This document shows, piece after piece, positions 820 through 28,266 of a stretch of DNA of 64,000 nucleotides. Below the pieces are notes generated by a model that was given only the letters and a program-made list of their open reading frames with translations, was not told where the DNA came from and made no database searches. The stretch's first letter is position 1. The number at the start of each line of letters is the position of its first letter. The position numbers and the translations under genes were made by a program. Origin of the DNA: an uncultured Planctomycetia bacterium (lineage in GTDB: Bacteria > Omnitrophota > Gorgyraeia > Gorgyraeales > Gorgyraeaceae); contig CAYPYS010000001.1 of the NCBI GenBank assembly GCA_964415355.1, forward strand, positions 215,399 to 279,398, in the 5' to 3' direction.

Positions 820-836
820 TACTCCCCCCTTCTCTT

Positions 837-873
837 TAACTTTACATTTCAACAACGTTAAAGTGTAAAGTTA
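837..873. repeat. PIE copy 1 (37-bp imperfect palindrome TAACTTTACATTTCAACAACGTTAAAGTGTAAAGTTA)
   Basis: Read directly. It lies between the ychF-like stop (871-873, TAA = rc of the element's terminal TTA) and the purH start (819). The arms TAACTTTACA and TGTAAAGTTA are complementary. Confidence 0.9.
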
Positions 874-1872
874 GATGTTGAACCTGATGTTTATTATGTC
901 TCCGTCTTTTACTATATATTCCTTTCCTTCTACTTTCAGCAAGCCTGCTTCGCGGGCCTTGGGAACAGAGCCGCATTTAATAAAATCTTCGAAATTGAGC
1001 ACCTCTGCCCTTATAAAACCTCGCCTCATATCAGAGTGTACTTTACCTGCTGCCTCTATTGCCGATAATCCAGCTTTTAAATACCAGCCACGCGTTTCCT
1101 TTTCTCCGGTCGTGAAAAAGGTGACAAGATTTAATTTCTTTAAAATCAATTGCGAAAGCCGTTCTCTAAAATTATAGCCAGCGCCTAGTTCTTTTAAAAA
1201 TTTCTCTCTTTCTCCCGGAGCCAGCTCAAGAAGTTCTGATTCTGTCTTTCCAAAAAACCGAATAGACCTGATGTCTTTTAAGCTAGCGTGTTCCTCCAGC
1301 GCCTTTATTTTGGTTTCAGCCTCTTTATCCTCGTCTGAAACATTGATTGCCAAAATCAAGGGTTTTAAACTCAAAAATACCAGGCCGGAAAGCAGCTTTA
1401 TATCTTCGTTGCCTAGCCCGGCCTTTGATAAAAACTTTCCGTCCGAAGCGATCGCCTGACATTTCTCCAATATCTCTAGTTCACGTTCTGAGTCAGATTT
1501 CTTCCCCTCTTTTTCTATCCTCTTGATCCTATTTTGTATAAGGTCAAGGTCTGATATTATGATATCCGTAAGGCAATTTTCGAATTCCTTTTTAGGGTCC
1601 TGGCTAAAAAAAGCGCCTATAACACATATAAAAAGATCCACATCGTGCAGGTCAGACAGATCCTTTTTGCTAAAAGTCGAAGTGGATCCAATATCCACAA
1701 AGGTAAATTCAGGATATGTTGCTTTTTTCGACGAAAAAACTTCACGAATCTTATCTATGCGCGGATCCAATGCCCTAAAAACGCCGATGTTACCCGAGGC
1801 GTCTTTATTTAATAAGATTTTAAATAAAGTAGTCTTTCCGCTCTGAGGAGAGCCGATTATTCCTATCTTCAT
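871..1872 (-). CDS. YchF/Obg-family GTP-binding protein (divergent P-loop GSPQSGKTT; TGS-like C-terminus)
   Basis: 333 aa. MKIGIIGSPQSGKTTLF Walker A motif. C-terminal ...TRGWYLKAGLSAIEAAGKVHSDMRRGFIRAEV... resembles the YchF TGS domain. Its ATG at 1870-1872 nearly overlaps the upstream pseudopilin stop TAG (1874-1876), which suggests translational coupling. Confidence 0.7.
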   Translation of the reverse strand: MKIGIIGSPQSGKTTLFKILLNKDASGNIGVFRALDPRIDKIREVFSSKKATYPEFTFVDIGSTSTFSKKDLSDLHDVDLFICVIGAFFSQDPKKEFENCLTDIIISDLDLIQNRIKRIEKEGKKSDSERELEILEKCQAIASDGKFLSKAGLGNEDIKLLSGLVFLSLKPLILAINVSDEDKEAETKIKALEEHASLKDIRSIRFFGKTESELLELAPGEREKFLKELGAGYNFRERLSQLILKKLNLVTFFTTGEKETRGWYLKAGLSAIEAAGKVHSDMRRGFIRAEVLNFEDFIKCGSVPKAREAGLLKVEGKEYIVKDGDIINIRFNI

Positions 1873-2491: not shown

Positions 2492-2502
2492 ACTCCAAAC
2501 CT

Positions 2503-2539
2503 TAACTTTACATTTTAACATTGTTGAAATGTAAACTTA
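2503..2539. repeat. PIE copy 2 (TAACTTTACATTTTAACATTGTTGAAATGTAAACTTA)
   Basis: Read directly. The stop of pseudopilin 2537..2917 (TAA, rc of TTA 2537-2539) lies in its right end. The next gene's start (2491) is 12 nt beyond its left end. Confidence 0.9.
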
Positions 2540-2917
2540 GCGAATGACATGCGTCACAAAATCCTTTGACCTTGTCCTGTTACGCTCGACCCAAGACACC
2601 GTCGCCGTGATCTTTCTGATATCGTCTGTAGATTCTACGCCTTCCAGCTCAGCTTCGTCAATAAATATCTCCCACTCAAAATCTCCCTCTGTCCCTGAAA
2701 GCTCTATCTTGGGTGGAAGCTCTGTTATTACATCAAATCCTGCCATCTTCACTTCTTCTAATTTATTCTGCCCCAAAAATGCAGCTTTTGTCATCATGCC
2801 TGCGCGGTATGAAGCACGGAGACCAACAGGAAATATCTGCAGAACGCCCACGAGCCCAATAGCCAGCACCCCTATAGCTATAATCAGTTCTAAAAGCGAA
2901 AATCCTCTTTTATGCAT
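2537..2917 (-). CDS. Pseudopilin (GspG/H-like) with prepilin-type N-terminal cleavage/methylation motif
   Basis: 126 aa. MHKRGFSLLELIIAIGVLAIGLVGVLQIF is a canonical G^FSLLE prepilin signal followed by a hydrophobic helix. Confidence 0.75.
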   Translation of the reverse strand: MHKRGFSLLELIIAIGVLAIGLVGVLQIFPVGLRASYRAGMMTKAAFLGQNKLEEVKMAGFDVITELPPKIELSGTEGDFEWEIFIDEAELEGVESTDDIRKITATVSWVERNRTRSKDFVTHVIR

Positions 2918-5223: not shown

Positions 5224-5248
5224 ACAGCCCTTTCGGTATAATAAGCAC

Positions 5249-5285
5249 TAACTTTACATTTTAACATTGTTGAAATGTAAAGTTA
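5249..5285. repeat. PIE copy 3 (TAACTTTACATTTTAACATTGTTGAAATGTAAAGTTA)
   Basis: Read directly. The RND gene stop (5283-5285) lies in its right end. The coiled-coil gene start (5223) is 25 nt beyond its left end. Confidence 0.9.
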
Positions 5286-8200
5286 GGCGGGATGGTTCCG
5301 GGATTTCACTTTTATTATACCATAAATCCTGTTTTGAACAAATAATATTAATTGCATTGGATTAAAGCTTCTTCTGAGATCATCGAAGATCAAATAAAGG
5401 CTGGGAATTAAAAATAATGTGAGGACGGTGGAAGAGATAAGCCCCCCTATGACAGTTATCGCCAAAGGAGACCATAGATTAGCTGACTCGCTCCTGTCAA
5501 ATGCCATTGGCAAAAGCCCCAGGATAGTCGTAGAGGTAGTCATTACTATAGGCCTGAAGCGGTCTTCTCCTGCCTCCAGCACTGACTTTAAAATAGTCCC
5601 TCGTTTCCTTTTTTCTCTCGTCTTAAGCCTTTCCATTCTAGGAAGATGGAAAAGCGGGCCCCTTTTCTTTCTCCCTCTTAAAAAATTAATCCTGTCCACC
5701 AGGACAATGGAATTATTCACGACGATACCGGCCAGCATAATCGCACCTATTATAACTCCGCGGCTGATGGGTTTTTTCGTGATCTCAAGCGCCAAAACCA
5801 CCCCGATCACTGCCAGCGGAACCGCGATCATTATAACAAAAGGCTGCACATATGACTCGAAGAGGGACGCCAGCACAAGGTATACCAAAAATATCGTTAT
5901 CCATAAAACACCTGTGGGAAAGGCCCATAATTCCTTCTCGCTCTCCTTCAATCTTTCATAATCTCCGCCTATCCTATAATAATAATCCCTTGGGAATGTC
6001 ATGTCGGATAGATTCGACTTTATCCTCTTCTCCGCATCCACAAGCGTGCCCTTTGTAACAAGAGCCGTAATGTGCACGACCCTCATCTTATTTTTTCTTA
6101 CTATCTCACTCGAGCCTATCTGAGGATTAAACTCTGCCACCTGCTCAAGTATCAGAGGATCTCTGTCTTTCGAAAAAAGTATTAATTTTCTTAGATCATC
6201 GAGGCGCTCCCTGTCTTCTTTTCTTAGACGCGAAATAGTCTCTATCTCTCTCGCTTCCGTATGATATAATGTCGCTCTCAAGCCCCTTATCTCAGTATGA
6301 AGCGTCGTCGCTATGTCTCTGGTCGTCAAACCGAGCATGGCTGCCCTTTCTTTGTCGACTACGACGCCCCATTCCGGCCTGCCGCTGATCCTGGACATCC
6401 TGATATCTTCAAAGCCCTGCATTGCGCCTAGCCGCGTCGCAATCGAGACTGAAAGCTCCCTCAATACGTCATAATCATACCCATAAAGATCTACTACCAT
6501 CTCTTTCAAACCCTTTTCCTCTATTTCAGAAAAATAGATAAAACCCCCTCTGTATTTTTCTTCGACTGAGTGGGCGACATTCCGGATATCCTCTATGATG
6601 ACCTTTGTAGAACGCTGCCTCTGCATAAGAGGCAGAAGTTTTATATATATCTTCCCTGACCACGGCTCCACGCGTGAGGTAAAAGTCTTTATTTCCGGGA
6701 GCTCATCCAGCAACACCTCTATCTCCTTCACCATCTGGTCAGTCACATCGAGCTTTGCGCCAGGCTCCAGCTCGACAAAAATAGTAAATCTTCCCTCCTC
6801 TGTACCTATCATAAATTCCCTGTCCAAGAAAAATCCGCGTAACAAGACCAGCGCGAACAAGAAGAATGCTATCCCTGTAGCTATATATCTAAACCTCAGC
6901 CCGTAACCAAGAAATCTCCGATAATAAATCTTCAATCTCGTGAGCGTGTATTTTTTAAACATTAGTTTTTCGGATTCTTTCAGTCGAGGCATTATCTTCA
7001 TGCGGTCCGACAGCATGGGCACGAGCGTCAATGCTACGAACAGCGAGCTTAGGAGCGAATATGTCACTGTCAATGACAGCCCGCTCCACAGCATTCGCGT
7101 GGCCTTGTTTACAAAGACAAAGGGCAGGAATACGATTATAGTTGTAACAGTAGATGCGAATATCGCGAGGCCCACCTCGGATGTCCCGCCAACAACTGCG
7201 CTGGTGTATTTAGCCTTCCAGTCTTTTTTAGAATAATCGATAGCGCTTTTTTTCTTTTGAATATTATCGAGCACGACTATAGAATTGTCGACTAGCATGC
7301 CTATACCGAGCGCAAGGCCGCTGAGTGTCATAACGTTTATAGTTATCTTGTAAAAATACATCAGCGCAAACGTGAGCATGACTGATATGGGTATAGAAAC
7401 GGCTATGATCGAAGTCACATAGGGATCTCTCAAGAAGAGAAACAGTATCACAATGGCCAGGATCGCGCCGTACAGAAGAGACGTCCTAACAGCGACTATC
7501 GCCTCTTTTATCGCCTCAGATTTATTCAAAGTCGACTTTATAAATATATCCTTGTCCAGCGTCCTTTTTAAGCGGTTAAGCTCTTTCTGTATGCTCGATA
7601 TGACCTGGATTGTATTAGCGGTCGACTCTTTTTGAATATATATAGAGACGACGGGCTCTATGTCTGTCCTCGCGTAACTCGTGGGTTCCAAAAAAGAATC
7701 CCTCACCTTTGCGATTTCTTTAAGCCTGACTATGGAGCCATGAGCAGTGGTGGCGATGCCCAGATTTTTTATATCCTCGACAGACTGGAATTCTCCTATT
7801 ATCCTTACCAGAAATTTATTCTTGCCGTGCTTAATATCTCCTGCGAGCAAATTCAGATTGTTTACGCCAAGAAGATTGACAACCTGCTCAATAGGGACAT
7901 TGTACTGATGCAGTTTGTTCTTATCTATCTCGACGAGAATCTTTCGCTCCCTGCCCCCGTATATATCCACATTCGCAACGCCTTCCACGCGCAGCACTCG
8001 TTCTTTCACCTGTTCGTCTACGACTTTTCGCAACATCTCCGGCGAATAATTCTTTCCGGTGACTGCCAGGACCAGAATAGGCATGTCGGATTCTTTATAC
8101 TGTGCTATTATCGGTTTCTCTATCTCCTGCGGGAGTTTTTCTCTTATCTTTGAAAATTTTTCTCTAACTTCGAGCGCGGCAAAATCCATATTAGTGCCTG

Positions 8201-8492
8201 GCTCAAATTCAAGCCAGATCCTGGACTCTCCTGATTTTGAAGTGGAATAGATATTTTCCAGATGACTTACAGAGCTGACCGCCTCCTCAATGGGCTTAGT
8301 TACCATGACCTCTACTTCCTGCGGAGGCATGCCGCCTCTTATCCCGACGATAATACTTATGTCGCCGTAGGCTATGTTCGGCTTTAGATCAACTGGAAGG
8401 TTTAATAGAGACACGAATCCCACCAGCAATATGCCAATAAAAAGCATAGCTATGGTAACCGGCCTCCTGACTGAAAAACCTGATAGGCTCAT
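5283..8492 (-). CDS. Efflux RND transporter permease subunit (AcrB/MdtC/CzcA superfamily), second of a tandem pair
   Basis: 1069 aa. It starts MSLSGFSVRRPVTIAMLFIGILLVGFVSLLNLPVDLKPNI. It shows the 12-TM RND architecture with two large periplasmic loops, and internal motifs such as ...VLDNIVVVENI-like VVLDNIQKKK and AVPLAVIGVVLALEITKKPIS. Confidence 0.85.
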   Translation of the reverse strand: MSLSGFSVRRPVTIAMLFIGILLVGFVSLLNLPVDLKPNIAYGDISIIVGIRGGMPPQEVEVMVTKPIEEAVSSVSHLENIYSTSKSGESRIWLEFEPGTNMDFAALEVREKFSKIREKLPQEIEKPIIAQYKESDMPILVLAVTGKNYSPEMLRKVVDEQVKERVLRVEGVANVDIYGGRERKILVEIDKNKLHQYNVPIEQVVNLLGVNNLNLLAGDIKHGKNKFLVRIIGEFQSVEDIKNLGIATTAHGSIVRLKEIAKVRDSFLEPTSYARTDIEPVVSIYIQKESTANTIQVISSIQKELNRLKRTLDKDIFIKSTLNKSEAIKEAIVAVRTSLLYGAILAIVILFLFLRDPYVTSIIAVSIPISVMLTFALMYFYKITINVMTLSGLALGIGMLVDNSIVVLDNIQKKKSAIDYSKKDWKAKYTSAVVGGTSEVGLAIFASTVTTIIVFLPFVFVNKATRMLWSGLSLTVTYSLLSSLFVALTLVPMLSDRMKIMPRLKESEKLMFKKYTLTRLKIYYRRFLGYGLRFRYIATGIAFFLFALVLLRGFFLDREFMIGTEEGRFTIFVELEPGAKLDVTDQMVKEIEVLLDELPEIKTFTSRVEPWSGKIYIKLLPLMQRQRSTKVIIEDIRNVAHSVEEKYRGGFIYFSEIEEKGLKEMVVDLYGYDYDVLRELSVSIATRLGAMQGFEDIRMSRISGRPEWGVVVDKERAAMLGLTTRDIATTLHTEIRGLRATLYHTEAREIETISRLRKEDRERLDDLRKLILFSKDRDPLILEQVAEFNPQIGSSEIVRKNKMRVVHITALVTKGTLVDAEKRIKSNLSDMTFPRDYYYRIGGDYERLKESEKELWAFPTGVLWITIFLVYLVLASLFESYVQPFVIMIAVPLAVIGVVLALEITKKPISRGVIIGAIMLAGIVVNNSIVLVDRINFLRGRKKRGPLFHLPRMERLKTREKRKRGTILKSVLEAGEDRFRPIVMTTSTTILGLLPMAFDRSESANLWSPLAITVIGGLISSTVLTLFLIPSLYLIFDDLRRSFNPMQLILFVQNRIYGIIKVKSRNHPA

Positions 8493-8550: not shown

Positions 8551-8560
8551 ATATCTCGCG

Positions 8561-8597
8561 TAAGTATACATTTTAACGTTGTTGAAATGTATACTTA
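8561..8597. repeat. PIE copy 4a, GTATAC-stem variant (TAAGTATACATTTTAACGTTGTTGAAATGTATACTTA), first of a tandem pair
   Basis: Read directly. Both arms carry GTATAC in place of CTTTAC/GTAAAG, a compensatory double change. Confidence 0.9.
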
Positions 8598-8599
8598 CG

Positions 8600-8636
8600 T
8601 AACTTTACATTTTAACAATGTTAAAGTGTAAAGTTA
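8600..8636. repeat. PIE copy 4b (TAACTTTACATTTTAACAATGTTAAAGTGTAAAGTTA), second of a tandem pair
   Basis: Read directly. The stop of RND gene 8634..12437 (TAA) lies in its right end. Confidence 0.9.
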
Positions 8637-11600
8637 TTTTAATGCGTACCACCTGCCTGGGCCGAGAGGGCCGTGGGCTTCGAGCATACCGCGATCCACA
8701 AGCTCCTTCAGGTCCCTGGCTGCAGTAGGCACAGATATATTGAAACGCTCAGCGTATTCTTTGCGCGTGATTTTCTTTACTTCTTTTAAAAGCTCTAAAA
8801 GCTCTTCTTGTCTCTTTTTGAGAAGCGGCAGTTCTTCTGGCGCTTGAGGAGTGGGCTCAGGTTCTGGCTCGGGAGGCGCGGGTTCTGGCGGAGCAGGTTC
8901 TGACAGAGCAGGTTCAGGTGGTGCAGGTGGCGGCGGTGGAGGCAATTCTATTTTTGGCTCTTTTGGCGGCTTTGGCGTCTCTGGTTCCTTTGGCAACTCT
9001 TTCTTTTCTTGCTCTTGCGCTCTTATCTGAGGTTTGTATTCTTCTGCCTCTTTCAGTGATTCCGGCTCCTTTGGCTCTTCTTTTGGTTTCTCTTTCTTCT
9101 TAATACTAAAAGGTTTTACTTTGACCTTGAACTCCCTCGCCTCATCCGCCGATAATTTAATATCCCGATCCCTTTTAACTACTGGCTTTGCAATTTTTTT
9201 TGCTGCAGTCCTTGGCGGCTCAGCCTTTTTAACCGGCATAAGTTTAAAAACCGGCTTTGGCCCAAAAATACCGGCCACGACCAAATATATGCAAGGTATA
9301 ACAAAAAGTGTCAATATCGTTGAAACCAAAAGTCCGCCCATGACCGTTATCGCCATTGGACTCTGTATCTCCGCCCCTTCTGCAATGCCTGCTGCCAGCG
9401 GCAAAAGCCCCAGCACCGTGGTCATTGTCGTCATGAGAATCGGCCTGAGTCGCATCTTGCCTGACTCTATAACCGCTTCCACGAGCTCGACGCCTTTAGC
9501 GCGCAGCCTGTTTATTGAATCAATCAAAATAATACCGTTATTGACAACGATACCTCCAAGGATTATCACGCCGAGAATCACAACGACGCTGACAGGGGTA
9601 CCTGTAATAAATAACGCGAACAACGCTCCGATCGCAGAAAGCGGCAGCGTAAACATAATAATAAACGGCTGCCACAATGACTCGAATTGCGAAGCCATTA
9701 TCATGTAGACCAAGAGCATCGAGAGAAGCAGCGCAAACCTCAGCGACTTAAAAGATTCGCTCATCTGCTGACTTTCCCCCGAGAGATCAATGGTAAAAAG
9801 CTTCTCTGAGTCTCCCATCTTGTGCGACACCACGATCTTTTCCCGCTCAATATCCTCTATCATGGCCTCTATATCCATGATCACTTTATCCAGCGCCCTG
9901 TCAGCGATGTTGGCAGTCAGAAGAATAACCCTCTGTTGATCCAGCCTCTTTATCTCGCTAGGCCCTACGCCTTGACTGATATAGGCGACCTCTGACAGCG
10001 GCACCTCGATCCCGAGCGGAGAATGCACAAGCACGTTTCTGATTTGCGAGAGGCGCGACCGGCTTTCCTTCCTCAGTCTGACCCTCACATCTATCTCGTC
10101 TCCTTCTTCCTTAAACTTCGTCGCGACCACTCCTTTTATAGCAGTGTGCGCGGCCTGAGCTATGGTTCCCGTCGACAGATTGTAAAGCGATGCCTTGTCC
10201 TTAAGCACATTGACCTTTGTCTCTGGCGAAGGACTGATGAGACTCGTGCGGATACCGTATATACCTTTAACGCTAGCGAGTTTTGCTTTGACATACCTGG
10301 AAAGTTCTTCTATCTTATCAAGGTTTTTTCCTTTTATTTCAATGACAATAGGCGCGCTGCCCTGCAGGGCTGTCTTAAAAATACTCTCCTGTAGAATATA
10401 TTCTACCTGCGCTCCCTGCAGATCCAGTCTGTCTAATTCGCGTTTCAATTTTTCTATTGTCTTAGATGTCGGAGGCTGGCCTTTTCCTTTCTCCAGCGTC
10501 ACTATTATCTGAGATTGGTTGGACCCCAATGTTTCAACGCCTTGAGAATAGTCTTTTCTCGCGCTCGAGCCAATATTAACAGCCACGCCTTCAACGCCCC
10601 CTGTTCCAAAAAGTACTTTTTCTATCTTTGCCACAGCACTGTCCGTGGCCTCCAGCTTTGTGCCGCTAGGCATGTTGACTTTCATGATAAATTCGCGCTG
10701 GTCTATCTTTGGCATAAATTCCTTGTCCAGCAAGGCAAAAAGCCACACGCTCACGGCAAAAATTATAAAAATAAGGATCAGAAAAGCCACTCTGAATCTT
10801 AAAATCGTAGGTATGAGTCTTGAATAAACAGGCTTGAGGCCGAATGTAAATTCGCTCTTTTCTTCTCTGGATGCAGCGTTCGAATTCGAAATAGATCTCT
10901 GGGCGCGAAGACCGCCAACGCCGGTCAGCCGCGGGATCAAAGAAAGTGCCACAACTAAAGACGCGATCAGCGAAAACGTGACAGTAAAGGCGAGCTCTCT
11001 AAACAGCTGTCCCGCGACGCCAACGACAAATATCATCGGCAAAAATACTGCGACAGTAGTGAGCGTCGACGAGAAAATAGCTCCCGACATCTCGCTGGCC
11101 CCGGACTTACTCGCGTCTTTTATATTTACGTCTTTGCCTTTTTGGAGATGGGCGTAGATATTTTCAATTACAACTATTGCGTTGTCCACGAGCATGCCTA
11201 TACCGAGGGCCAGCCCGCCAAGAGAAAGCATGTTCAGCGAAATACCGTTGAAATACATGAGGCAGAACGCGACCATGATGGATATCGGCATTGAAAACGC
11301 GACTATTAAAGAAGCCCTGACCCTTCTTATAAAAATAAAAAGCACTAAAAATGCGAGAGCGCCTCCGATAATCGCAGCCTGCATGACCCCGCGTATTGAT
11401 TTTTTAATCAGGAGCGACTGGTCATATATTATGTCTATTTCCATTCCTTCCGGCAGATCTGCTTCTATTTCCTTCAGCCTCGCTCTTACTTTTTGGGCTA
11501 CAAGCAGGATGTTAACGCCCGCTTGTTTCTGCACAGCCACTGAAACGTTTTCCCTGCCATTGTAACGCGAGATGCTCGTGCGGTCTTTAAATGTGTCCTT

Positions 11601-12437
11601 GAGTTCCGCTATATCCTTAAGGTATATCAGTCTTTCTCTTTCCTTTATATCCTGAGCTTGTCGGGGAAGGATCGCGCGTAGCCCTGAGTCCTCGATCTCC
11701 CTGTCTACAACGGTCTCCTCTATATCCGAAAGCACCTGGAATTCCCCCATTGTCCTTATGAGGTATTCGTAAAAATGCTCCTCTATTGTGCCTGCTGGAT
11801 AATTTATATTAGACGACCGCAGAGCCTCAACGACCTTTGTGATGGAAATATTGGAAGCGCGCAGCCTTCCTTCGTCTATGGAGACAAGTATTTCGCGCTC
11901 CAGTCCGCCGGCAAGGTTACACGACGCCACGCCGTCGACCTTTTCAAGTTCGTCTTTGATAAATTTTCTCGAGAGCCGCAGGAGTTCTGAAGGAGACTTG
12001 TCGCCTCTGACGCTCAACGTAAGGACAGGCAGCTCAAACGGGTTGAATTTCATTACTATCGGGTCTGAAGAACCTATAGGAAGTCGTTCTTTTATGAGGT
12101 CTATTTTTTCGCTCACGCCGAGAGAGGCAAAATCCATGCTCGTGCCCCAGCCGAATTCACCGGTGACGATCGAAACGCCTTCCTTCGAGATAGAGCTTAT
12201 GCGTTTCAGATTACTGACTGTGCCGACCGCTTCTTCGATAATCTTCGTAATCAGTGTCTCGACTTCTTCTGGCGCTGCGTTTTCGTATGTGGTAACTACT
12301 GTGAGTTGCGGATAGGTGATAGAGGGGAAGAGTTCCCTAGGAAGGCGCGTAAGCGAGATCAACCCTAATATCAGCGCCCCCAAAAAGAACATGGAGATCG
12401 TAACAGGCCGATTTACTGAAAATTCTGGAAGTCGCAT
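8634..12437 (-). CDS. Efflux RND transporter permease subunit fused to a C-terminal ~230-aa extension (K/E-rich, then a Pro-rich low-complexity segment, then a winged-helix HTH)
   Basis: 1267 aa. The RND core runs to about aa 1035. Then comes a ...KEKPKEEPKEPESLKEAEEYKPQIRAQEQEKKELPKEPETPKPPKEPKIELPPPPPPAPPEPALSEPAPPEPAPPEPEPEPTPQAPEE linker. The C-terminus is ...ITRKEYAERFNISVPTAARDLKELVDRGMLEAHGPLGPGRWYALK, a DeoR/Fic-C-type wHTH. Confidence 0.8.
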   Translation of the reverse strand: MRLPEFSVNRPVTISMFFLGALILGLISLTRLPRELFPSITYPQLTVVTTYENAAPEEVETLITKIIEEAVGTVSNLKRISSISKEGVSIVTGEFGWGTSMDFASLGVSEKIDLIKERLPIGSSDPIVMKFNPFELPVLTLSVRGDKSPSELLRLSRKFIKDELEKVDGVASCNLAGGLEREILVSIDEGRLRASNISITKVVEALRSSNINYPAGTIEEHFYEYLIRTMGEFQVLSDIEETVVDREIEDSGLRAILPRQAQDIKERERLIYLKDIAELKDTFKDRTSISRYNGRENVSVAVQKQAGVNILLVAQKVRARLKEIEADLPEGMEIDIIYDQSLLIKKSIRGVMQAAIIGGALAFLVLFIFIRRVRASLIVAFSMPISIMVAFCLMYFNGISLNMLSLGGLALGIGMLVDNAIVVIENIYAHLQKGKDVNIKDASKSGASEMSGAIFSSTLTTVAVFLPMIFVVGVAGQLFRELAFTVTFSLIASLVVALSLIPRLTGVGGLRAQRSISNSNAASREEKSEFTFGLKPVYSRLIPTILRFRVAFLILIFIIFAVSVWLFALLDKEFMPKIDQREFIMKVNMPSGTKLEATDSAVAKIEKVLFGTGGVEGVAVNIGSSARKDYSQGVETLGSNQSQIIVTLEKGKGQPPTSKTIEKLKRELDRLDLQGAQVEYILQESIFKTALQGSAPIVIEIKGKNLDKIEELSRYVKAKLASVKGIYGIRTSLISPSPETKVNVLKDKASLYNLSTGTIAQAAHTAIKGVVATKFKEEGDEIDVRVRLRKESRSRLSQIRNVLVHSPLGIEVPLSEVAYISQGVGPSEIKRLDQQRVILLTANIADRALDKVIMDIEAMIEDIEREKIVVSHKMGDSEKLFTIDLSGESQQMSESFKSLRFALLLSMLLVYMIMASQFESLWQPFIIMFTLPLSAIGALFALFITGTPVSVVVILGVIILGGIVVNNGIILIDSINRLRAKGVELVEAVIESGKMRLRPILMTTMTTVLGLLPLAAGIAEGAEIQSPMAITVMGGLLVSTILTLFVIPCIYLVVAGIFGPKPVFKLMPVKKAEPPRTAAKKIAKPVVKRDRDIKLSADEAREFKVKVKPFSIKKKEKPKEEPKEPESLKEAEEYKPQIRAQEQEKKELPKEPETPKPPKEPKIELPPPPPPAPPEPALSEPAPPEPAPPEPEPEPTPQAPEELPLLKKRQEELLELLKEVKKITRKEYAERFNISVPTAARDLKELVDRGMLEAHGPLGPGRWYALK

Positions 12438-12459
12438 TATTCACTTTAAATTAATCTCC

Positions 12460-12496
12460 TAACTTTACATTTCAACAACGTTAAAATGTAAACTTA
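12460..12496. repeat. PIE copy 5 (TAACTTTACATTTCAACAACGTTAAAATGTAAACTTA)
   Basis: Read directly. It lies between the adaptor-gene stop (12504-12506, 8 nt away) and the RND start (12437). GGAG is 10 nt upstream of that ATG. Confidence 0.9.
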
Positions 12497-12503
12497 GGGA
12501 CAC

Positions 12504-13721: not shown

Positions 13722-13723
13722 CC

Positions 13724-13760
13724 TAAGTATACATTTCAACAATGTTAAAATGTATACTTA
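13724..13760. repeat. PIE copy 6, GTATAC-stem variant (TAAGTATACATTTCAACAATGTTAAAATGTATACTTA)
   Basis: Read directly. The TolC-like gene stop (13758-13760) lies in its right end. Confidence 0.9.
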
Positions 13761-15593
13761 GGGCTTTGGGTGTGAGGCCAATCGGAAACTTCCGTCATCC
13801 AGAAACAAAGTATAGCCCGTAGCCCTGTTCAACTTTGCCAATGCCTGGTACAAGCTGCCGACCGCTTCTATATAAAATGACTTCTCGTCTGTAAGACTGA
13901 TGCGCGCCTGCATAAGCGCTGAATACGGTATTTCATTGAGCCCTGTTCGCGCTTTCGCGACCTTGAGTTCTTCTTCCCGATAATTCACCTTGTCCAGGTT
14001 TGCCCTTGCCTGTATCAAGCCTTTCTCGTATCCATAATAAGCATCTTTTATCTCTCTTATAATCGAGGCCTTTAGTTTCTTCAGCTCTTCCTTTGCCTTC
14101 TTAAATCCTATGCTGGCAGACTTTTTCTCAGAAAAACTCTGGAGGTTATCGAGGATCCCTATTTCAACAGACTGGCTCGCTGACTCTGTCCTGGTGCTTT
14201 CGCCGTGTTTCTCGCTCGTCTTGTCCTCTGTATAACCAGCGGATATTGTGTTGCCGCCAAGAGGCTTTGTCACTTTTAACCCAAGATACCAATCTTGATC
14301 CAATTCCAGCGTCTCTGTTTCAAACGCGCCGCCGGATTTTCCGTAAGAACCAGAGAGATCCACCTTAAACTGATCTTTGCTCTTCGCGATCTTCTGCCCA
14401 TAATCGTTAAAATCCACTATGTGCTTCTTTGCCTTGAAATCAGGCCTGTAACCAAACGCCAGATCCATGCACTGGTTCAATGTAACATCGACCTCTATCG
14501 CCTCAAGATAAGTAAGCTCTCCTAAGATCAAAACTTCACCCATATCGTCAGAGTCTTCGATGTTCATTGCCTGCGCGAGAGTCAATTTTGCCATGTCCAG
14601 CTCATTCTCGCTCGATGAGACCTGGTAGGCGATCTGCTTCATCTGTGAATGGACCTGCAAGAATTCTGTCTTTGTGCTCAAGCCCAGGTCAAACCTTTTC
14701 TTTGCCATCTCAAATATAGCCTCTGCGTCTTTTAATAGCTCACGCTGTTCCTTGAGGTTTATGCTCTTTACAATATATGAATAAAATGCTGTCTCTACGT
14801 CCATCCTCAAATCCTGCAATACCCTGTCATAATTTTCCTTTGAGGCCTTCATATTAGACATTGCCTGATCTACCGCATATTTAAGCCGCCAGCCATAATA
14901 CAGCGGGTGCTCGAACTTTATTTTGTACTCCTTGTCTGTGAAATCCTGGGTCGTGCCAGTAGTCTTACCTGTGGTCTCCATGTAATTCAAGCTCGCGGAC
15001 GGGTACAGCGCGCGGCGCGCCTCTCTGATCTTCAGCTCTGAGAGCTCTATTTCTTCCTTGGCTATGTCAGTGGATAAATTATTCTCAAGCGCGATATCTA
15101 TGGCCTGACCAATGTGCAGTTCCTCGGGCAGCGAGGCAGCAAACTCCGGCTCTGGTTCCCTGCTTTCAGTATAGTCCTCGCCAGGCTCTTTTTTAGGACT
15201 GGTCGCAAAGAATATCACAGGCACATCCAGCCATAGTTCTTCGGCGCCCAACTGGGCTGGAAAAGGCTTGAATCTATCTAATTTAAAAGTTGCCCTGAGA
15301 CAGATCTTGTCTAGATTTTTATTGCCTGAGGACTCAGAAACATAGATATCCCTTAGCTCACCCTTAGGAGAAAGAAGCATCTTAAGTTTCATTTCGCCCC
15401 TGGAATTAGACACAATATACCTCTCAGGCTTTCCTATGGCCTCATTTATATCCTTTGAAAGCCCAATTATATACTGTGTTATTGCTTCAATATTAGACGA
15501 AGATACTTGGTAGGCAAAAGATACAGTGCTGCATTGCGCTATAACTATAATAAATACAATAAGATACAATAATTTTCTATGCCTTGTAATCAT
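13758..15593 (-). CDS. Outer membrane efflux protein (TolC/OprM family) with an extra N-terminal ~130-aa domain
   Basis: 611 aa. It has a signal peptide (LLYLIVFIIVIAQCSTVSFA). Two TolC-like repeats with coiled-coil segments are present (...LYPSASLNYMETTGKT..., ...LTDEKSFYIEAVGSLYQALAKLNRATGY). It is the first gene of the tolC-MFP-RND-RND operon. Confidence 0.7.
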   Translation of the reverse strand: MITRHRKLLYLIVFIIVIAQCSTVSFAYQVSSSNIEAITQYIIGLSKDINEAIGKPERYIVSNSRGEMKLKMLLSPKGELRDIYVSESSGNKNLDKICLRATFKLDRFKPFPAQLGAEELWLDVPVIFFATSPKKEPGEDYTESREPEPEFAASLPEELHIGQAIDIALENNLSTDIAKEEIELSELKIREARRALYPSASLNYMETTGKTTGTTQDFTDKEYKIKFEHPLYYGWRLKYAVDQAMSNMKASKENYDRVLQDLRMDVETAFYSYIVKSINLKEQRELLKDAEAIFEMAKKRFDLGLSTKTEFLQVHSQMKQIAYQVSSSENELDMAKLTLAQAMNIEDSDDMGEVLILGELTYLEAIEVDVTLNQCMDLAFGYRPDFKAKKHIVDFNDYGQKIAKSKDQFKVDLSGSYGKSGGAFETETLELDQDWYLGLKVTKPLGGNTISAGYTEDKTSEKHGESTRTESASQSVEIGILDNLQSFSEKKSASIGFKKAKEELKKLKASIIREIKDAYYGYEKGLIQARANLDKVNYREEELKVAKARTGLNEIPYSALMQARISLTDEKSFYIEAVGSLYQALAKLNRATGYTLFLDDGSFRLASHPKP

Positions 15594-15897
15594 GTCTTAC
15601 CCTCGTGAAAAAGAAGTATACCATATGATTATATAATTGTCAATATTGGGGTTACAAAAATTTTGATACAGTTATGATACGGTTGGTTTGTTGGTGAGTC
15701 CCTTAGCATAATGAAGATATGCTAAGGCATGCTTAGGTCAGTCTTCGGAGGCCTCTTTATTTTTTGCGGACATGGTGCTTAACTTTACACTTTAACGTTG
15801 TTGAAATGTAAAGTTAAGCGAGCAAAAAATAAAAAGGAGAGAAAGCCGCTTCGCTGGGAGCGGCTGAGCGTCCTACGAAGACTGGCCTAAGCATGTC
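15594..15897. promoter_or_regulatory. Structured 304-bp intergenic region upstream of the efflux operon, with long inverted repeats bracketing a PIE copy
   Basis: Small hairpins: CTTAGCATAATGAAGATATGCTAAGG (~15700-15727), CTAAGGCATGCTTAGG (~15722-15738) and CCTAAGCATGTCTTAGG (~15885-15901). The left arm GGCATGCTTAGGTCAGTCTTCGGAGGCC (~15726-15753) is nearly the reverse complement of CGTCCTACGAAGACTGGCCTAAGCATG (~15869-15895). Inner inverted A/T runs are CTCTTTATTTTTTGCGG and GAGCAAAAAATAAAAAGGAG. A PIE sits at the centre. Confidence 0.6.
15780..15816. repeat. PIE copy 7 (TAACTTTACACTTTAACGTTGTTGAAATGTAAAGTTA; centre in flipped orientation)
   Basis: Read directly. The central 17-mer CTTTAACGTTGTTGAAA is the reverse complement of the copy-1 centre. 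Confidence 0.9.
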
Positions 15898-17139: not shown

Positions 17140-17168
17140 GGCTCCCTCCTTTTTTAATTGCGCCCTTC

Positions 17169-17205
17169 TAACTTTACACTTTAACGTTGTTGAAATGTAA
17201 AGTTA
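17169..17205. repeat. PIE copy 8 (TAACTTTACACTTTAACGTTGTTGAAATGTAAAGTTA)
   Basis: Read directly. The stop of ORF 17203.. (TAA) lies in its right end. Confidence 0.9.
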
Positions 17206-19974
17206 GAAGACACCGTGATAATAGATACGCAGTATATGCTGCGTATCCAGCGTTGGGTAAAAATCTCCAAAAGGACTCATAACTATACCTGGTATAGAAG
17301 TAGAATCGATGCTGCCCTCTCCAAACTGTATTACCAGCGCCCCATATTCGGTAACATTGTAATCCAGCTCCATAAATACATTGTGATGTTTCTCGTATTT
17401 CAAGTCTCCGCTTGTATTTAATCTATATAAGTTGTACGCCCTTGAAAAGGTATATTTCAGAAACCCTTTCAGCCTGGGATTAAATTTGTATTTAAAGGTC
17501 GTGCTAAATTGGTTCATGTTGTTATCCATGCTTTGCGCAAATTTAAAGTCGTTCTTGGTATAATCAAGATCTATGCCAAGATTTTCTAATGGCTTAAGCG
17601 AAACGCCGAGCCTGTAAATATTAAAACGCTCATATGGCGGAAGGTCAAAAAATCCCTGCGAATACAGAAAAGGTACTTCGCTTCTTATCTGCTGGCCATT
17701 TTCAGCCGCAGTGGAAAAACTGATATTATTCAAAAGCCACCTGGGATAATTATTTGTCGCGAATGTGGAATCATTTGTATTTTCGTATATGCCAAAAACG
17801 CTTATCCAGTCCCATTCCGACGGAGAATATTCTACGCCTAAAGAATATGTGGATACAGACGGGTCTTTCCCGTCCTCGATGGCGGCATTTGACTTGAATT
17901 CCCCTGTATCTGCGTCGTAGATGATAGGATCTATGCCTCCTTTGGTCTTTGGGAGGTCGTGATATATAAATAAAAACTTGGAAGTCCACTCAGGGTTGAT
18001 CTCAAGGGTATTTTCCTCTCTAAAAACGCCCTCGACATATTTATGATCAGAATCCCTCACGTATCTATAGTCGATTAAATTCTTCATCCTGCCATCCAGC
18101 GCATCTTCTTTCTCTAATCTGAAATTAACTGCATCCCTGCCCACATCCACTCCATCGCCTATTCTAAATGGCTCAATATCTTCATATCTTAAAGGATCAG
18201 AACCCCACCTGCTATATTCTATCGGTTCTTTAAAATGAATGTGCCTGCCCCAGTATTGATCGTTCCTTGTCTGCCTATAACTTGCCAGCCCCGGATCAAA
18301 ACCTTTATCCATATGCGTAAAGGCTAATCTCGCGTCGCCCCACGTCGTTCCTCTCTTAACTGCGAGATGGGCCGCGGTTCCGTTTCTCTCTGTCTCGTAA
18401 GTGCTGTCTGATCTATCATCTTCGCTCTTACTCACTGCGATCTCACCGACTATATTAGTGGTTGGATTTAAATCATAACTGGCATCTACGCCAAATACAT
18501 TATTATACGAATCAGCCTTATCGTCTTCGTAACCTATCCTGAACGTGTCTATAAAGCCTAACGTCAACCTATCATTTATAGGTGTCTTTATCCTTATCGC
18601 GCCAGGCACTGCGTTGACACTGTCATATTCCTGCCACAATCCTTTAGGCGTCGCAAAGGTCGTCTGCAGCTCGCTGCCCCCAGCAAACTCAGACGCAAAG
18701 GAAAAGCCTCTCAGGGCTGTAAGCCTTTTTAGTTCCTCGCTCTCTCTTGTAAAAGTTGACAGGTCGCTTGACCATTGTCCTCGAGTAAAAGAAGCTGCGC
18801 TTGAATTTAAATTTCCGGTCTTCCATTCATCAAGCCACGGACTCGGCTCCCAGTAGATGTGATGGTTCGAAAGCCCCAATGGGTCGTCTGAAGAAAGAGC
18901 CTGGTCTTCCAAGCCAAACAGAAACGCCCTGGCTTTATAACTATCGGTATTATAATCAAACCATAGCTCCCTCATTGGCTGAAAACTTGTATCTATATCC
19001 AGCTCGGGTATGCTAAAACTCTCTCCCCATGTATCATTGACCGAAGTAGAAACCACCCTTCCGTCAACAACCTTTAATTCAGGTATATCTATATCATCTC
19101 CATCACTCAATGTTGGTATGGTTTCGTTTATTGTGCTTCTGTTGCCTGACCAGTACTTTAACTCTATCTCGGTCGTGTCTCCAGCGCTGCCGGTTATTGT
19201 AGTCTTTTCTGTTTTTCCTACGAAACTCCAAGGGTCCACTGTGATGTCGGAATGGAAATTCAAACCTTCCTCACTTTTATTTGTATCAAACACGACCTTA
19301 AATCTGTCATACACTCTTTTATCGAATGTATTTGCCTTTGGAAATTGGTGGTCTATTACTCTGAAGTTGCGCTCGACATGGTCTGCATTTGTATCCTTCC
19401 AGATCAAATCATCGCCTGTAACGCCAAAGGCCATCTTGTATTCACCCTTTATCTCGCCGGGCGCGATATTGTCATTGAGCGCGTCGGCTATGGCTTTTAT
19501 TTTATCTTCAGAATAACCTGGCGGATACTGGTATCGCGGCTCTGTCTGTGGTTTTATCTGTGGCTGGTGGGAATATTCATATTCTTCTACAGGCTCATAT
19601 CTTTCCTCTATATGCACCGGTCTGTCAAATTCTGGATTATCGCTATACTCTCCTCTATATATAGGTTGCGGCAACGCCTCTGACTCCCTGCGCAGCTCAT
19701 CGCTTCTCTGGTAAGTATCCAGCATCCCGCGCGCGCGCAGCCTGAGCTCCGCGTTCACAAGATCCAGATACGTCTGCGCGTCAGCGTTCCGCGAGTCGAG
19801 CTCGATCGCGCGCTCGAGGATCACCTTGGCCTCGTGCAGCTTGCCGGCGCGATAGTAGTCCACGCCCCTGCTGGACAAGCCGAAGCTCACGGCAATATCC
19901 TGCTCTTGCGCAAAGCAGGGCGCTGCCGCCACTAATACCAACACTGTCACTATCGCCGCAAATTTCCTCATCAT
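17203..19974 (-). CDS. Large (~923 aa) secreted protein, putative outer-membrane beta-barrel / oligosaccharide channel; N-terminal TPR-like helix pair
   Basis: The likely start is MMRKFAAIVTVLVLVAAAPCFA (ATG 19972-19974). The track start (MLKCKLTRV) lies inside the PIE. It is beta-rich and Asp/Gly/Tyr-rich throughout. It ends in ...YYHGVF (aromatic C-terminal residue, typical of OMPs). It is adjacent to the glycoside-hydrolase genes. Confidence 0.5.
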   Translation of the reverse strand: MMRKFAAIVTVLVLVAAAPCFAQEQDIAVSFGLSSRGVDYYRAGKLHEAKVILERAIELDSRNADAQTYLDLVNAELRLRARGMLDTYQRSDELRRESEALPQPIYRGEYSDNPEFDRPVHIEERYEPVEEYEYSHQPQIKPQTEPRYQYPPGYSEDKIKAIADALNDNIAPGEIKGEYKMAFGVTGDDLIWKDTNADHVERNFRVIDHQFPKANTFDKRVYDRFKVVFDTNKSEEGLNFHSDITVDPWSFVGKTEKTTITGSAGDTTEIELKYWSGNRSTINETIPTLSDGDDIDIPELKVVDGRVVSTSVNDTWGESFSIPELDIDTSFQPMRELWFDYNTDSYKARAFLFGLEDQALSSDDPLGLSNHHIYWEPSPWLDEWKTGNLNSSAASFTRGQWSSDLSTFTRESEELKRLTALRGFSFASEFAGGSELQTTFATPKGLWQEYDSVNAVPGAIRIKTPINDRLTLGFIDTFRIGYEDDKADSYNNVFGVDASYDLNPTTNIVGEIAVSKSEDDRSDSTYETERNGTAAHLAVKRGTTWGDARLAFTHMDKGFDPGLASYRQTRNDQYWGRHIHFKEPIEYSRWGSDPLRYEDIEPFRIGDGVDVGRDAVNFRLEKEDALDGRMKNLIDYRYVRDSDHKYVEGVFREENTLEINPEWTSKFLFIYHDLPKTKGGIDPIIYDADTGEFKSNAAIEDGKDPSVSTYSLGVEYSPSEWDWISVFGIYENTNDSTFATNNYPRWLLNNISFSTAAENGQQIRSEVPFLYSQGFFDLPPYERFNIYRLGVSLKPLENLGIDLDYTKNDFKFAQSMDNNMNQFSTTFKYKFNPRLKGFLKYTFSRAYNLYRLNTSGDLKYEKHHNVFMELDYNVTEYGALVIQFGEGSIDSTSIPGIVMSPFGDFYPTLDTQHILRIYYHGVF

Positions 19975-19982
19975 CACCCTTG

Positions 19983-20019
19983 TAAGTTTACATTTCAACA
20001 TTGTTGAAATGTAAACTTA
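19983..20019. repeat. PIE copy 9 (TAAGTTTACATTTCAACATTGTTGAAATGTAAACTTA; G..C paired stem variant)
   Basis: Read directly. It is followed by a GC-rich segment CGTCGCCCGCCGCGCTACCTGCGCAGCCGCGCC (20021-20053). Confidence 0.9.
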
Positions 20020-20060
20020 GCGTCGCCCGCCGCGCTACCTGCGCAGCCGCGCCAAACCTT

Positions 20061-21269: not shown

Positions 21270-21282
21270 CTCTCTCACCCCT

Positions 21283-21319
21283 TAACTTTACACTTCAACA
21301 TTGTTGAAATGTAAAGTTA
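21283..21319. repeat. PIE copy 10 (TAACTTTACACTTCAACATTGTTGAAATGTAAAGTTA), flanked by CCCC/GGG extending the palindrome
   Basis: Read directly. A second hairpin GGTCTGGG...TGCCGACAGGCA...CCCAGACC follows immediately (21321-21356). Confidence 0.9.
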
Positions 21320-21367
21320 AGGGTCTGGGTCTCTGCCGACAGGCAAAGGCCCAGACCAAAAAATATA

Positions 21368-24486: not shown

Positions 24487-24522
24487 AACTTTACATTTCA
24501 ACAACGTTAAAGTGTAAACTTA
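24486..24522. repeat. PIE copy 11 (TAACTTTACATTTCAACAACGTTAAAGTGTAAACTTA)
   Basis: Read directly. It directly abuts the GH start codon. The ABC permease start (25375) is on the other side, so this is not a stop-overlapping copy. Confidence 0.9.
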
Positions 24523-24526
24523 GCAC

Positions 24527-25384: not shown

Positions 25385-25408
25385 GTCATTCCCGCGAAAG
25401 CGGGAATC
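25385..25408. repeat. Hairpin GTCATTCCCGCG-AAA-GCGGGAATCC (family B; 8-bp stem, GAAA loop) in the 5' leader of the permease gene
   Basis: Read directly. Confidence 0.8.
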
Positions 25409-25409
25409 C

Positions 25410-25446
25410 TAACTTTACATTTCAACAACGTTAAAGTGTAAACTTA
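25410..25446. repeat. PIE copy 12 (TAACTTTACATTTCAACAACGTTAAAGTGTAAACTTA; identical to copy 11)
   Basis: Read directly. The stop of permease 25444..26331 lies in its right end. Confidence 0.9.
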
Positions 25447-26331
25447 GGCCTTGTTCATATGCTTCGATATACGGATCTGGATAAATGACACTGCCAAAAG
25501 TATCGCGCCGAAGATAATGCCCTGGCTGCACGCATATCCAAATCTCGACGAACCCACCATCGAAGACAAAATCCTGGTCACAGGGACCTCTGTATGGTAC
25601 CCTGGCCCTCCTCCTGTCATTGAAAGTATCAATACAAAAACCTGCATCGTGCCGAGCACCGTAAGGATCGACACCAGGACAAACACAGGCACCATAAGAG
25701 GCGCAGTAACCTTTTTAAATATCTGCCATGAGTTTGCTCCGTCCACGCGCGCGGCCTCGTACAGCTGCCTCGGTATAGTCTGAAGTCCTGCCAAAAATAT
25801 AATAAAACCCCAGCCAAATCCTTTCCAGCAATGGATCATTGCCACGCACGTCAGCGCGGTCTTTGGATCCGAAAGCCAGTCCCGCACCAAATGCGACAAT
25901 CCCATCGCATGCAGCCAATGATTCAAAAGTCCGAAATTCCCGTCGTAAATCCAGCGCCACACAAGCCCGACGACCACCGCAGAAAGAACAGGTGGCAGAT
26001 AAAATATCACTCTGTAAACATTCCCGCCTTTTATGTCTCTGTCGCACGCCCACGCCAGCGTCAGCGCCAAGGCGTTCTGAAAAGTAAGCGCGATCAGGGT
26101 AATATACCCTGCCTGGCCCATGGCCTGCCACCAGATTTTATCGTAAAAGAAAAGCTCTTTAAAATTCCTGAAGCCTATGAAATTTTTCGCAAAATCAAAA
26201 CCCATTATCCCGTCCCACTCACAAAGAGAAAGCATGAAGACCTTGTAGAAAGGATAAATATAAAATACTGAGAACATCAATACTGCCGGCAACACAAAAA
26301 AGTAATTTTCAACTGTAGATTTTATCCGCAT
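25444..26331 (-). CDS. Carbohydrate ABC transporter permease (CUT1 family, MalF/UgpA-like)
   Basis: 295 aa with an EAA loop ...LYEAARVDGANSWQIFKKVTAPLMVPV.... Confidence 0.8.
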   Translation of the reverse strand: MRIKSTVENYFFVLPAVLMFSVFYIYPFYKVFMLSLCEWDGIMGFDFAKNFIGFRNFKELFFYDKIWWQAMGQAGYITLIALTFQNALALTLAWACDRDIKGGNVYRVIFYLPPVLSAVVVGLVWRWIYDGNFGLLNHWLHAMGLSHLVRDWLSDPKTALTCVAMIHCWKGFGWGFIIFLAGLQTIPRQLYEAARVDGANSWQIFKKVTAPLMVPVFVLVSILTVLGTMQVFVLILSMTGGGPGYHTEVPVTRILSSMVGSSRFGYACSQGIIFGAILLAVSFIQIRISKHMNKA

Positions 26332-26344
26332 AATTATATCCGCC

Positions 26345-26381
26345 TAAGTTTACACTTTAACGTTGTTGAAATGTAAACTTA
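26345..26381. repeat. PIE copy 13 (TAAGTTTACACTTTAACGTTGTTGAAATGTAAACTTA)
   Basis: Read directly. A family-C element follows immediately. Confidence 0.9.
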
Positions 26382-26383
26382 CG

Positions 26384-28264: not shown

Positions 28265-28266
28265 GC

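Follow-up and report, generated by a model that had tools for sequence, protein, structure and literature searches.

Several systems of short dispersed repeats in bacterial genomes are close enough to the palindromic element described here (PIE) to serve as references. REP/REPIN sequences (RAYT; Pseudomonas and E. coli) are short extragenic palindromes that reach a high copy number, form lineage-specific families, are predicted to fold into hairpins in single-stranded DNA or mRNA and leave asymmetric deletion remnants. A REP carries a 5′ GTAG/GTGG tetranucleotide, and a REPIN is an inverted doublet of two REPs. The Correia/NEMIS elements of Neisseria are MITEs with a TA duplication, have a length of ~100–155 bp and lie near gene ends; the terminal inverted-repeat hairpins in their transcripts are known RNase III substrates. 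The small dispersed repeats (SDR) of cyanobacteria are tens of nucleotides long, behave as insertions when orthologous loci are compared and nest within other repeats; we know of no transposase for them. Mycobacterial MIRU are found between the genes of operons, overlap the flanking stop and start codons and are direct, non-palindromic and oriented. The RPE of Rickettsia (100–150 bp, mostly intragenic) are tolerated in frame inside ORFs.

PIE was studied in the window, by which we mean the whole 64,000-nucleotide stretch of DNA that was analysed, and in further Omnitrophota sequences. With REP/REPIN it shares the extragenic position of a short palindrome, the high copy number, the lineage-specific families, the predicted hairpin and the asymmetric deletion remnants. 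The REP tetranucleotide is missing from its consensus (CTTAAS-TTTACA-...), it is a single near-perfect palindrome of 41 bp with a 3-nt loop rather than a doublet, and in contrast to REP/REPIN it is AT-rich and overlaps stop codons. Terminal inverted repeats, an invariant TA at both ends, insertion near gene ends and the presence of subfamilies are held in common with Correia/NEMIS, but PIE has only 41 bp and no internal segment, so that its two ends abut. Measured against TA-duplicating MITEs of the IS630/Tc1-mariner-like kind, it has the terminal inverted repeats and lacks both the internal segment and the length of ~50–500 bp; to our knowledge, there is no parent IS with the same ends. Like SDR, PIE is very small, insertion-like in ortholog comparisons and nested in other repeats, whereas it belongs to another phylum, has another sequence, is longer and perfectly palindromic, and is tied to stop codons. 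MIRU resemble it in their position between operon genes and in their codon overlap, and are set apart by their direct, oriented, non-palindromic sequence. The in-frame tolerance of RPE, which are longer and mostly intragenic, is matched by two degenerate PIE copies in a giant ORF. PIE works like REP/REPIN, small MITEs and SDR, yet lacks defining features of each.

In our assessment the PIE copies are probably non-autonomous mobile repeats of the REP, MITE or SDR kind, 41-bp near-perfect palindromes that have multiplied in a few Omnitrophota lineages. The co-change of the two arms reflects the amplification of a few subfamilies of what looks like a selfish element, and does not mark a conserved functional RNA. 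A very small and very dense palindromic repeat family is thereby added to a phylum known almost only from metagenomes. The literature on palindromic or intergenic repeats of Omnitrophota was searched and nothing relevant was found.

The element, its copies and their gene setting

Positions 8561–8597 of the window are the 37-bp core of PIE copy 4a (TAAGTATACA-TTTTAACGTTGTTGAAA-TGTATACTTA). The full element is a palindrome of 41 bp, with complementarity down to background at positions 0/42, and its consensus is C-TTAA-S-TTTACA / YTTYAAC-NNN-GTTRAAR / TGTAAA-S-TTAA-G. The arms comprise positions 1–19 and 23–41, enclose a 3-nt loop and are complementary in 92% of cells. The palindrome is single, its halves are not themselves palindromic, and just one direct tandem pair (4a/4b) is present. 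The alignment contains 16 invariant columns, and the TA at positions 3–4 and 38–39 is nearly invariant. The stem is AT-rich, and single copies are predicted to fold as RNA with −13 to −27 kcal/mol (z −3 to −8) and as DNA, on either strand, with −12 to −15 kcal/mol. For copy 4a, the RNA fold of the tandem pair that it forms with 4b was calculated as −30.4 kcal/mol (z −7.3), and DNA folding gave −15 and −13.5 kcal/mol.

The central 17-mer TTTCAACAACGTTAAAG was searched for in the window with up to three mismatches and gave 16 matches; shuffling gave an expectation of 0.25, and none of 100 shuffles reached 16. The 15 intergenic copies are all found in gene junctions within the first 28 kb (Table 1), where about three quarters of the junctions are occupied. 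When every copy was read with its flanks, the arm pairs listed in the earlier note were recovered in the same copies: CTTTAC/GTAAAG in copies 1, 3, 4b, 7, 8 and 10, GTTTAC/GTAAAC in copies 9 and 13, GTATAC/GTATAC in copies 4a and 6, and GCATAC/GTATAC in the 3′ copy 14. Its four asymmetric copies (2, 5, 11 and 12) do carry one C-C mismatch (TAAC...CTTA), and the central 17-mer is present in both orientations in the copies that it named. The centre is one conserved asymmetric unit that occurs in both orientations, as is expected for insertion in either orientation; against the single direction of transcription in the window, the two orientations stand at roughly 6:9.

Table 1. Positions of PIE copies and of other features named in the text. 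Positions are those of the window unless preceded by a locus label (L).
Feature	Position	Strand	Remarks
PIE copy 1	835..875		A-type arms AAC-TTTACA / TGTAAA-GTT; minus-strand TAA at positions 3–5 is the YchF stop codon
PIE copy 2	2501..2541		6–36 mismatch; separates two pseudopilin genes
PIE copy 3	5247..5287		CTTTAC/GTAAAG; supplies or overlaps stop codon of AcrB-like gene 5283..8492
PIE copy 4a	8559..8599		B-type arms AAG-TATACA / TGTATA-CTT; tandem with 4b, 2 nt in common
PIE copy 4b	8598..8638		A-type; TAA is stop codon of AcrB-HTH gene 8634..12437
PIE copy 5	12458..12498		6–36 mismatch
PIE copy 6	13722..13762		B-type; gives OEP gene stop codon; then GC-rich hairpin repeat
PIE copy 7	15778..15818		A-type; inside 122-bp composite repeat
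PIE copy 8	17167..17207		A-type; gives stop codon of gene 17203..20001
PIE copy 9	19981..20021		C-type arms AAG-TTTACA / TGTAAA-CTT
PIE copy 10	21281..21321		A-type
PIE copy 11	24484..24524		6–36 mismatch
PIE copy 12	25408..25448		6–36 mismatch; gives ABC permease stop codon; GC hairpin repeat adjoins
PIE copy 13	26343..26383		C-type
PIE copy 14	28266..28306		B-type, C at position 7 gives G.U on minus-strand transcript; gives giant ORF stop codon
Degenerate PIE copy	34729..34769	-	Read through in frame by giant ORF; A27G removes frame-1 stop
Degenerate PIE copy	48883..48923	-	Read through in frame by giant ORF; T25C removes frame-1 stop
Giant ORF	28302-63917	-	11,871 codons
AcrB-type RND transporter	8634-12437	-	
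Sigma-70 promoter-like site	15615-15643	-	TTGACA-17-TATACT with TG
Composite unit	15751-15872		122 bp; around PIE copy 7
GTAGGGGAG-CTTAAG-CTCCCCTAC palindrome	2928-2981		
GTAGGGGAG-CTTAAG-CTCCCCTAC palindrome	28213-28264		
GTAGGGGAG-type palindrome	L018		
GTAGGGGAG-type palindrome	L034		
GTAGGGGAG-type palindrome	L074:3259-3287		
GTAGGGGAG-type palindrome	L125:5568-5596		
GC-rich hairpin TCATTCCCGCGAAAGCGGGAATCC	8506-8550		Nested
GC-rich hairpin TCATTCCCGCGAAAGCGGGAATCC	13703-13720		
GC-rich hairpin TCATTCCCGCGAAAGCGGGAATCC	25389-25406		
GC-rich hairpin TCATTCCCGCGAAAGCGGGAATCC	L042		
GC-rich hairpin TCATTCCCGCGAAAGCGGGAATCC	L058		
GC-rich hairpin TCATTCCCGCGAAAGCGGGAATCC	L110		
GC-rich hairpin TCATTCCCGCGAAAGCGGGAATCC	L111		
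GC-rich hairpin TCATTCCCGCGAAAGCGGGAATCC	L137:3870-3930		
Nested palindrome TGTTCAAGGCTTAGCCTTGAACA...	L143:8888-8961		Permease–permease junction
Long PIE variant	L004:2625		
Long PIE variant	L011:141		
Long PIE variant	L017:453		
Long PIE variant	L023		
Long PIE variant	L027:1233		
Long PIE variant	L030:2856		
Long PIE variant	L046:4795		
Long PIE variant	L141:2274		

Every long ORF in the window is encoded by the minus strand. The genes specify YchF, type II secretion pseudopilins, GspF, two AcrB-type RND pumps, HlyD and an outer-membrane factor, as well as a ROK regulator, glycosidases, a sugar ABC transporter, PilZ and an ORF of 11,871 codons. The organism is placed in the Omnitrophota by YchF homologues that carry this name in their source records, and by the occurrence of PIE in Omnitrophota MAGs. 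The spacers that PIE copies occupy are very short. Where both flanks of a PIE copy were called, the neighbours were co-directional in 96 of 104 cases, convergent in five and divergent in three. Counted by junction at the MAG loci, PIE occupies 83 of 188 between co-directional genes, 5 of 13 between convergent genes and 2 of 13 between divergent ones. When copies were oriented by their genes, the TAA of element positions 3–5 closed the upstream ORF in 42 of 108 copies, and a further 11 used a different stop inside the element; among the metagenome copies, the upstream stop is at position 3 in 19 of 52 and elsewhere in the element in 9 of 52 (28 of 52 in total). The invariant TAA at positions 3–5 is the native stop codon of the upstream gene in ~40% of copies, and in MAG CAYULJ01 positions 1–2 are CT even where this TAA is the stop codon. 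The downstream start codon lies at a median of ~18 nt past the element, with a purine-rich stretch and no T-run. Stop codons are present in all three frames of both strands in 14 of the 15 intergenic window copies. PIE copies supply stop codons, confuse the calling of start codons and fragment assemblies.

Such a setting invites the reading that PIE is a host-functional RNA hairpin, an intercistronic signal of long polycistronic mRNAs (an RNase III-type processing site, a 3′-end stabilizer or a factor-dependent terminator) whose stem is under purifying selection and gains compensatory changes as a result. Its position in transcribed gaps between co-directional genes, the stable predicted RNA folds, the stem of ~19 bp, which is the length of an RNase III substrate, and the occupancy of 13 of 17 co-directional window junctions (by a crude gene count) are all consistent with this reading. 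Against it, PIE also occupies convergent and divergent junctions, no U-tract follows it, and hairpins that serve RNase III or stabilization do not need strict sequence conservation. We regard a host RNA hairpin as possible but unlikely, and return to it below with the covariation data and the relatives.

Other assignments were examined and set aside. An intrinsic terminator was rejected on the AT-rich stem, the lack of T enrichment at positions 42–66 and a terminator scan that flags no PIE. Reading TTTACA-N17-TGTAAA as a sigma-70 promoter leaves the arm covariation unexplained; the promoter scan flags no PIE, and a canonical TTGACA-17-TATACT is located elsewhere. For a DNA uptake sequence or a parS-type site, PIE is too long, too patchy among relatives and different in consensus. 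A search of the window against Rfam 15 gave no matches at the gathering score and none at E ≤ 1; the sub-threshold matches were to miRNA hairpins only, with 25 bits against a gathering score of 83–100. A near-consensus sigma-70 promoter-like site with this motif occupies the only long intergenic gap, where it is upstream of the gene for the outer-membrane factor.

Imperfect palindromes placed after each gene in a one-directional array, with AAC...GTT motifs, also recall the attC sites that flank integron gene cassettes, and both PIE and attC would be recognized as folded single strands. PIE differs in flanking housekeeping operons (YchF, purH, RND pump, ABC transporter, T2SS) that are syntenic in PIE-free relatives, in having no extrahelical bases and in being spread genome-wide. 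The genes concerned reach 35 kb, far beyond cassette size, and no integrase domain was found in the window ORFs that were scanned. Gene content and synteny rule out an attC array, the probability of which we take to be negligible.

Covariation between the arms

Copies were collected with a degenerate pattern, which gave 52 stretches in genome contigs of Omnitrophota MAGs (nearly all in MAG CAYULJ01), and with a second pattern, which gave 74 stretches in metagenome contigs (mostly JACKQG01). A fuzzy rescan of those loci together with 10 kb more of the window's own genome yielded 211 copies (window genome, MAG CAYULJ01, JACKQG01 metagenome and others), nearly all of them intergenic. The covariation reported below is no artefact of this search, since the patterns left pairs 6–36, 8–34 and 9–33 free and the fuzzy search penalizes double changes.

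Pair 6–36 is C-G in 89 of the 211 copies, G-C in 112 and of another kind in 10; pair 8–34 is T-A in 188, A-T in 18 and other in five; pair 9–33 is T-A in 188, C-G in 18, A-T in one and other in four. These three outer-arm pairs covary very strongly in the 211 copies (Fisher p 1e-12 to 1e-20), and Fisher tests gave p values from 5e-5 to 9e-20 in two independent data sets. Variants that were uncorrelated between the arms in a larger copy set had been named in the earlier note as the result that would overturn its proposal of compensatory change; in the 211 copies the arms are correlated. The 190 oriented copies comprise 132 distinct sequences, and in these the paired cells make up 92.3%, versus 88.3% in shuffles. 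The covariation score of the 132 sequences is 0.172 versus 0.111 when shuffled, none of 500 shuffles scored as high, and the score collapses when the partner is slid by 1–3 columns.

The compensatory double changes are therefore real, but they go back to few founding events. Four haplotypes of 85, 76, 18 and 14 copies account for 193 of the 211 copies, and in the outer pairs 3–12 there are 132 compensated and 36 uncompensated cells, with only two compensated cells private to a copy. The four haplotypes and the two private cells together indicate a small number of founding double changes that were then amplified. The ratio of 36 uncompensated to two private compensated cells further indicates that pairing decides which copies spread and is not kept up in place; resident copies drift without compensation. 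The A, B, C and D arm types coexist in one genome. Chimeric copies that join an A-type left to a B-type right arm also exist, and are the product to be expected if tandem copies such as 4b/4a recombine. The family is a clean example of how arm covariation in a repeat can pass for the mark of a conserved structural RNA: this covariation is genuine, yet it reflects which copies could multiply.

Of the selection for hairpin structure that was originally proposed, a pairing constraint is supported for the outer arms, which are constrained to stay complementary, but not for the inner stem. There, pairs 13–29 and 16–26 are anti-correlated, and C.A and T.G together outnumber the Watson–Crick pairs. 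In the window and metagenome copies, pair 16–26 is C-G in 11, C.A in 33, T.G in 41 and T-A in 15 (odds ratio 0.12, p 2e-6), and in the MAG the odds ratio is 0.25 (p 0.008). On the sense strand, the ratio of T.G to C.A is 77:45 at 16–26, 25:34 at 13–29 and 102:79 for both pairs. An RNA hairpin would be favoured by the excess of T.G at 16–26 and by the G.U of copy 14, which is formed on the sense strand only. It is disfavoured by the anti-correlation of the inner-stem pairs and by C.A mismatches that are overall as common as G.U (79 versus 102). The ratio is no clear RNA signature and is mainly the 1.7:1 orientation bias of the centre. The functional RNA that the earlier note had put forward is not singled out by these counts, and DNA hairpins are equally predicted.

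Matching arms could also arise with no selection at all, by neutral concerted evolution in which one arm is rewritten to match the other through template switching or mismatch correction within the palindrome. For template switching it is documented that a single step can generate perfect hairpin stems, and keep them so, with substitutions that look compensatory (PMC8794818), and many PIE copies are indeed perfect palindromes with arms of 18–21 nt. Such copying should, however, erase the C.A and T.G combinations at 13–29 and 16–26, yet most copies keep them. The 36 uncompensated against two private compensated cells in the outer arms of resident copies show in-place symmetrization to be rare and the compensated states to be inherited subfamily markers, and we judge neutral concerted evolution to be distinctly improbable.

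A dimeric-protein site had been offered as a further reason for paired changes. A duplex-DNA site for a dimeric host protein (of an operator, nucleoid or partition type) would have the twofold symmetry and the strong conservation of sequence and structure seen in the 16 invariant columns. The coexistence of four arm types in one genome is not expected of it, as a fixed protein would not regain its binding through a further change in the opposite half-site; 41 bp is long for a dimer site, copies recur at a density of one per 2–3 kb, and relatives with the same operons have no element. An ordinary protein site of this kind is highly improbable.

Relatives and the spread of the element

YchF and the ABC permease served as anchors for retrieving syntenic loci from relatives. 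The population of the window recurs in ten other assemblies at 99.9–100% identity, and no insertion polymorphism was seen among these ten contigs. No PIE was found in 19–21 kb of syntenic sequence from L138 (YchF 73% identical) and L140 (69%), or in the syntenic operons of L142–L144 (permease 84–86% identical). Protein C-termini in the relatives end at the same residues as in the window, and from this conservation across genomes it follows that PIE abuts the native stop codon. As judged by comparison with relatives at 69–86% protein identity, the empty junctions may represent loss rather than gain at single junctions.

Closer relatives retain altered copies. At the YchF–purH junction, the window has an A-type copy with positions 3–5 forming the native TAA, and L137 (88%) has a B-type copy 2 nt past the same TAA, with two GC hairpins beside it. 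This junction is consistent with ATC-TA-[33 bp]-TA-AAGAG, in which a duplication is not separable from the element as TA/TTAA is itself part of the palindrome. At the pseudopilin junction (the site of copy 2), L137 has a remnant consisting of positions 1–13 and 37–41, with positions 14–36 (23 nt) deleted. In L141 (95%), the ortholog of copy 13 is split after position 12 by a 38-nt insert, and the junction of copy 12 has a disrupted copy in which a different palindrome takes over after position 13. Searching for solo arms added ~40 copies that are truncated or rearranged, and a long variant that recurs and carries an insert of 19–38 nt (TACC..hairpin..GGCACAGG) precisely where arm position 12 meets centre position 13. 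The L137 and L141 copies are broken at this same boundary. Three independent rearrangements break after position 12 or 13, where the long-variant insert also sits. The insert may be a second mini-element that targets PIE, or the boundary may be a cleavage hot spot.

GspF is 95% identical to that of the window in L137, 83% in L140 and 45% in CAYULJ01. The family is patchy, being present in the distant CAYULJ01 and absent from the sampled syntenic regions of the closer L140. The element sequence itself is ~90% identical between distant genomes, which together with the 1.7:1 orientation bias at 16–26 could alternatively be read as a host function. PIE was not found in phage, plasmid and viral collections.

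The relatives weigh against the host RNA hairpin. Their same operons work without PIE, with genes that overlap or are separated by 4–50 nt, and in close relatives the copies are deleted, interrupted or replaced, which is not the behaviour of a conserved functional RNA. With relatives that do without the element, copies that decay and promoter-like and terminator-like sites nearby, a host RNA role is not needed.

For PIE as a mobile palindrome, the following course is envisaged. A new copy would land on TA (a putative YTAR-like site) that lies within a TAA/TAG stop codon or directly behind it, and the first A of the element would regenerate the TAA at insertion. With TAA or TGA in every frame of both strands, insertion would probably be harmless. 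Mobilization would require the arms to match, whether they form a hairpin or cruciform in single-stranded DNA or serve a single enzyme as a pair of identical ends, and consequently only variants changed on both sides would found subfamilies. Resident copies would afterwards drift, recombine and decay. Compensatory changes across the hairpin are common in REPINs (PMC3116915), and the amplified PIE copies with symmetric arms show the same pattern. In a polycistronic mRNA, PIE would fold as a 19-bp hairpin and may affect processing or stability, as the predicted folds suggest; the evidence does not suggest that it is required.

Mobilizing functions were looked for in 776 kb. A phmmer search of the six-frame ORFs for IS200/IS605-type TnpA, a weak test with an approximate IS608 TnpA query, gave nothing below E 0.5, so that neither a transposase nor a RAYT was found at this depth of search. 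No longer element with PIE ends was seen in the same 776 kb, the long variant adding just 19–38 nt. If a mobilizing enzyme were found, its substrate would be among the shortest mobile DNAs known. Several bolder readings are, taken together, rather improbable: that an enzyme recognizes the 41-nt hairpin and cuts at the boundary of arm and centre; that copies were co-opted as punctuation hairpins which process or stabilize the very long one-directional transcripts of Omnitrophota; or that stop loss in degenerate copies fuses neighbouring genes and so adds to the giant ORFs of the phylum.

Other repeats and the giant ORF

A second family consists of perfect palindromes of 52–54 bp built on GTAGGGGAG-CTTAAG-CTCCCCTAC, with two members in the window and others elsewhere (Table 1). 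It carries the GTAG hallmark of classical REPs, which suggests a RAYT-type system in these genomes, and it resembles classical REPs more than PIE does. A palindrome of the GTAGGGGAG type is absent from the same junction in L137. The third repeat is a GC-rich hairpin, TCATTCCCGCGAAAGCGGGAATCC, that is often directly downstream of PIE on the sense strand. The PIE-free relative L143 has an unrelated nested palindrome (TGTTCAAGGCTTAGCCTTGAACA...) at a permease–permease junction. The gene junctions of the clade seem to be colonized by different palindrome families in different lineages.

The 122-bp composite unit around PIE copy 7 is 81–88% identical to metagenome contigs L081, L090 and L115. Within it, the copy has a complementary T-run and A-run on its flanks, and a GC hairpin with a T-run, resembling a canonical terminator, comes before it on the minus strand.

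The giant ORF reads through both of its degenerate PIE copies, and the element frame is the same in the two (..FNFTLQQRWNVKL.. and ..IKLALQQCQSGSL..). In each of them the frame-1 stop is lost at an invariant or nearly invariant position. The ORF may be a fusion of three ORFs, or may tolerate in-frame insertions, and degenerate in-frame copies bear on the calling and interpretation of giant Omnitrophota genes. As a test of whether the giant ORF is split in a relative, it was compared with a large gene that L143 has upstream of PilZ; the two are not homologous.

The AcrB-type RND transporter encoded next to copy 4b has a C-terminal DeoR-like helix-turn-helix domain (residues 1209–1253), and its C-terminal motif GPLGPGRWY.LK is kept in the relatives L138 and L140.
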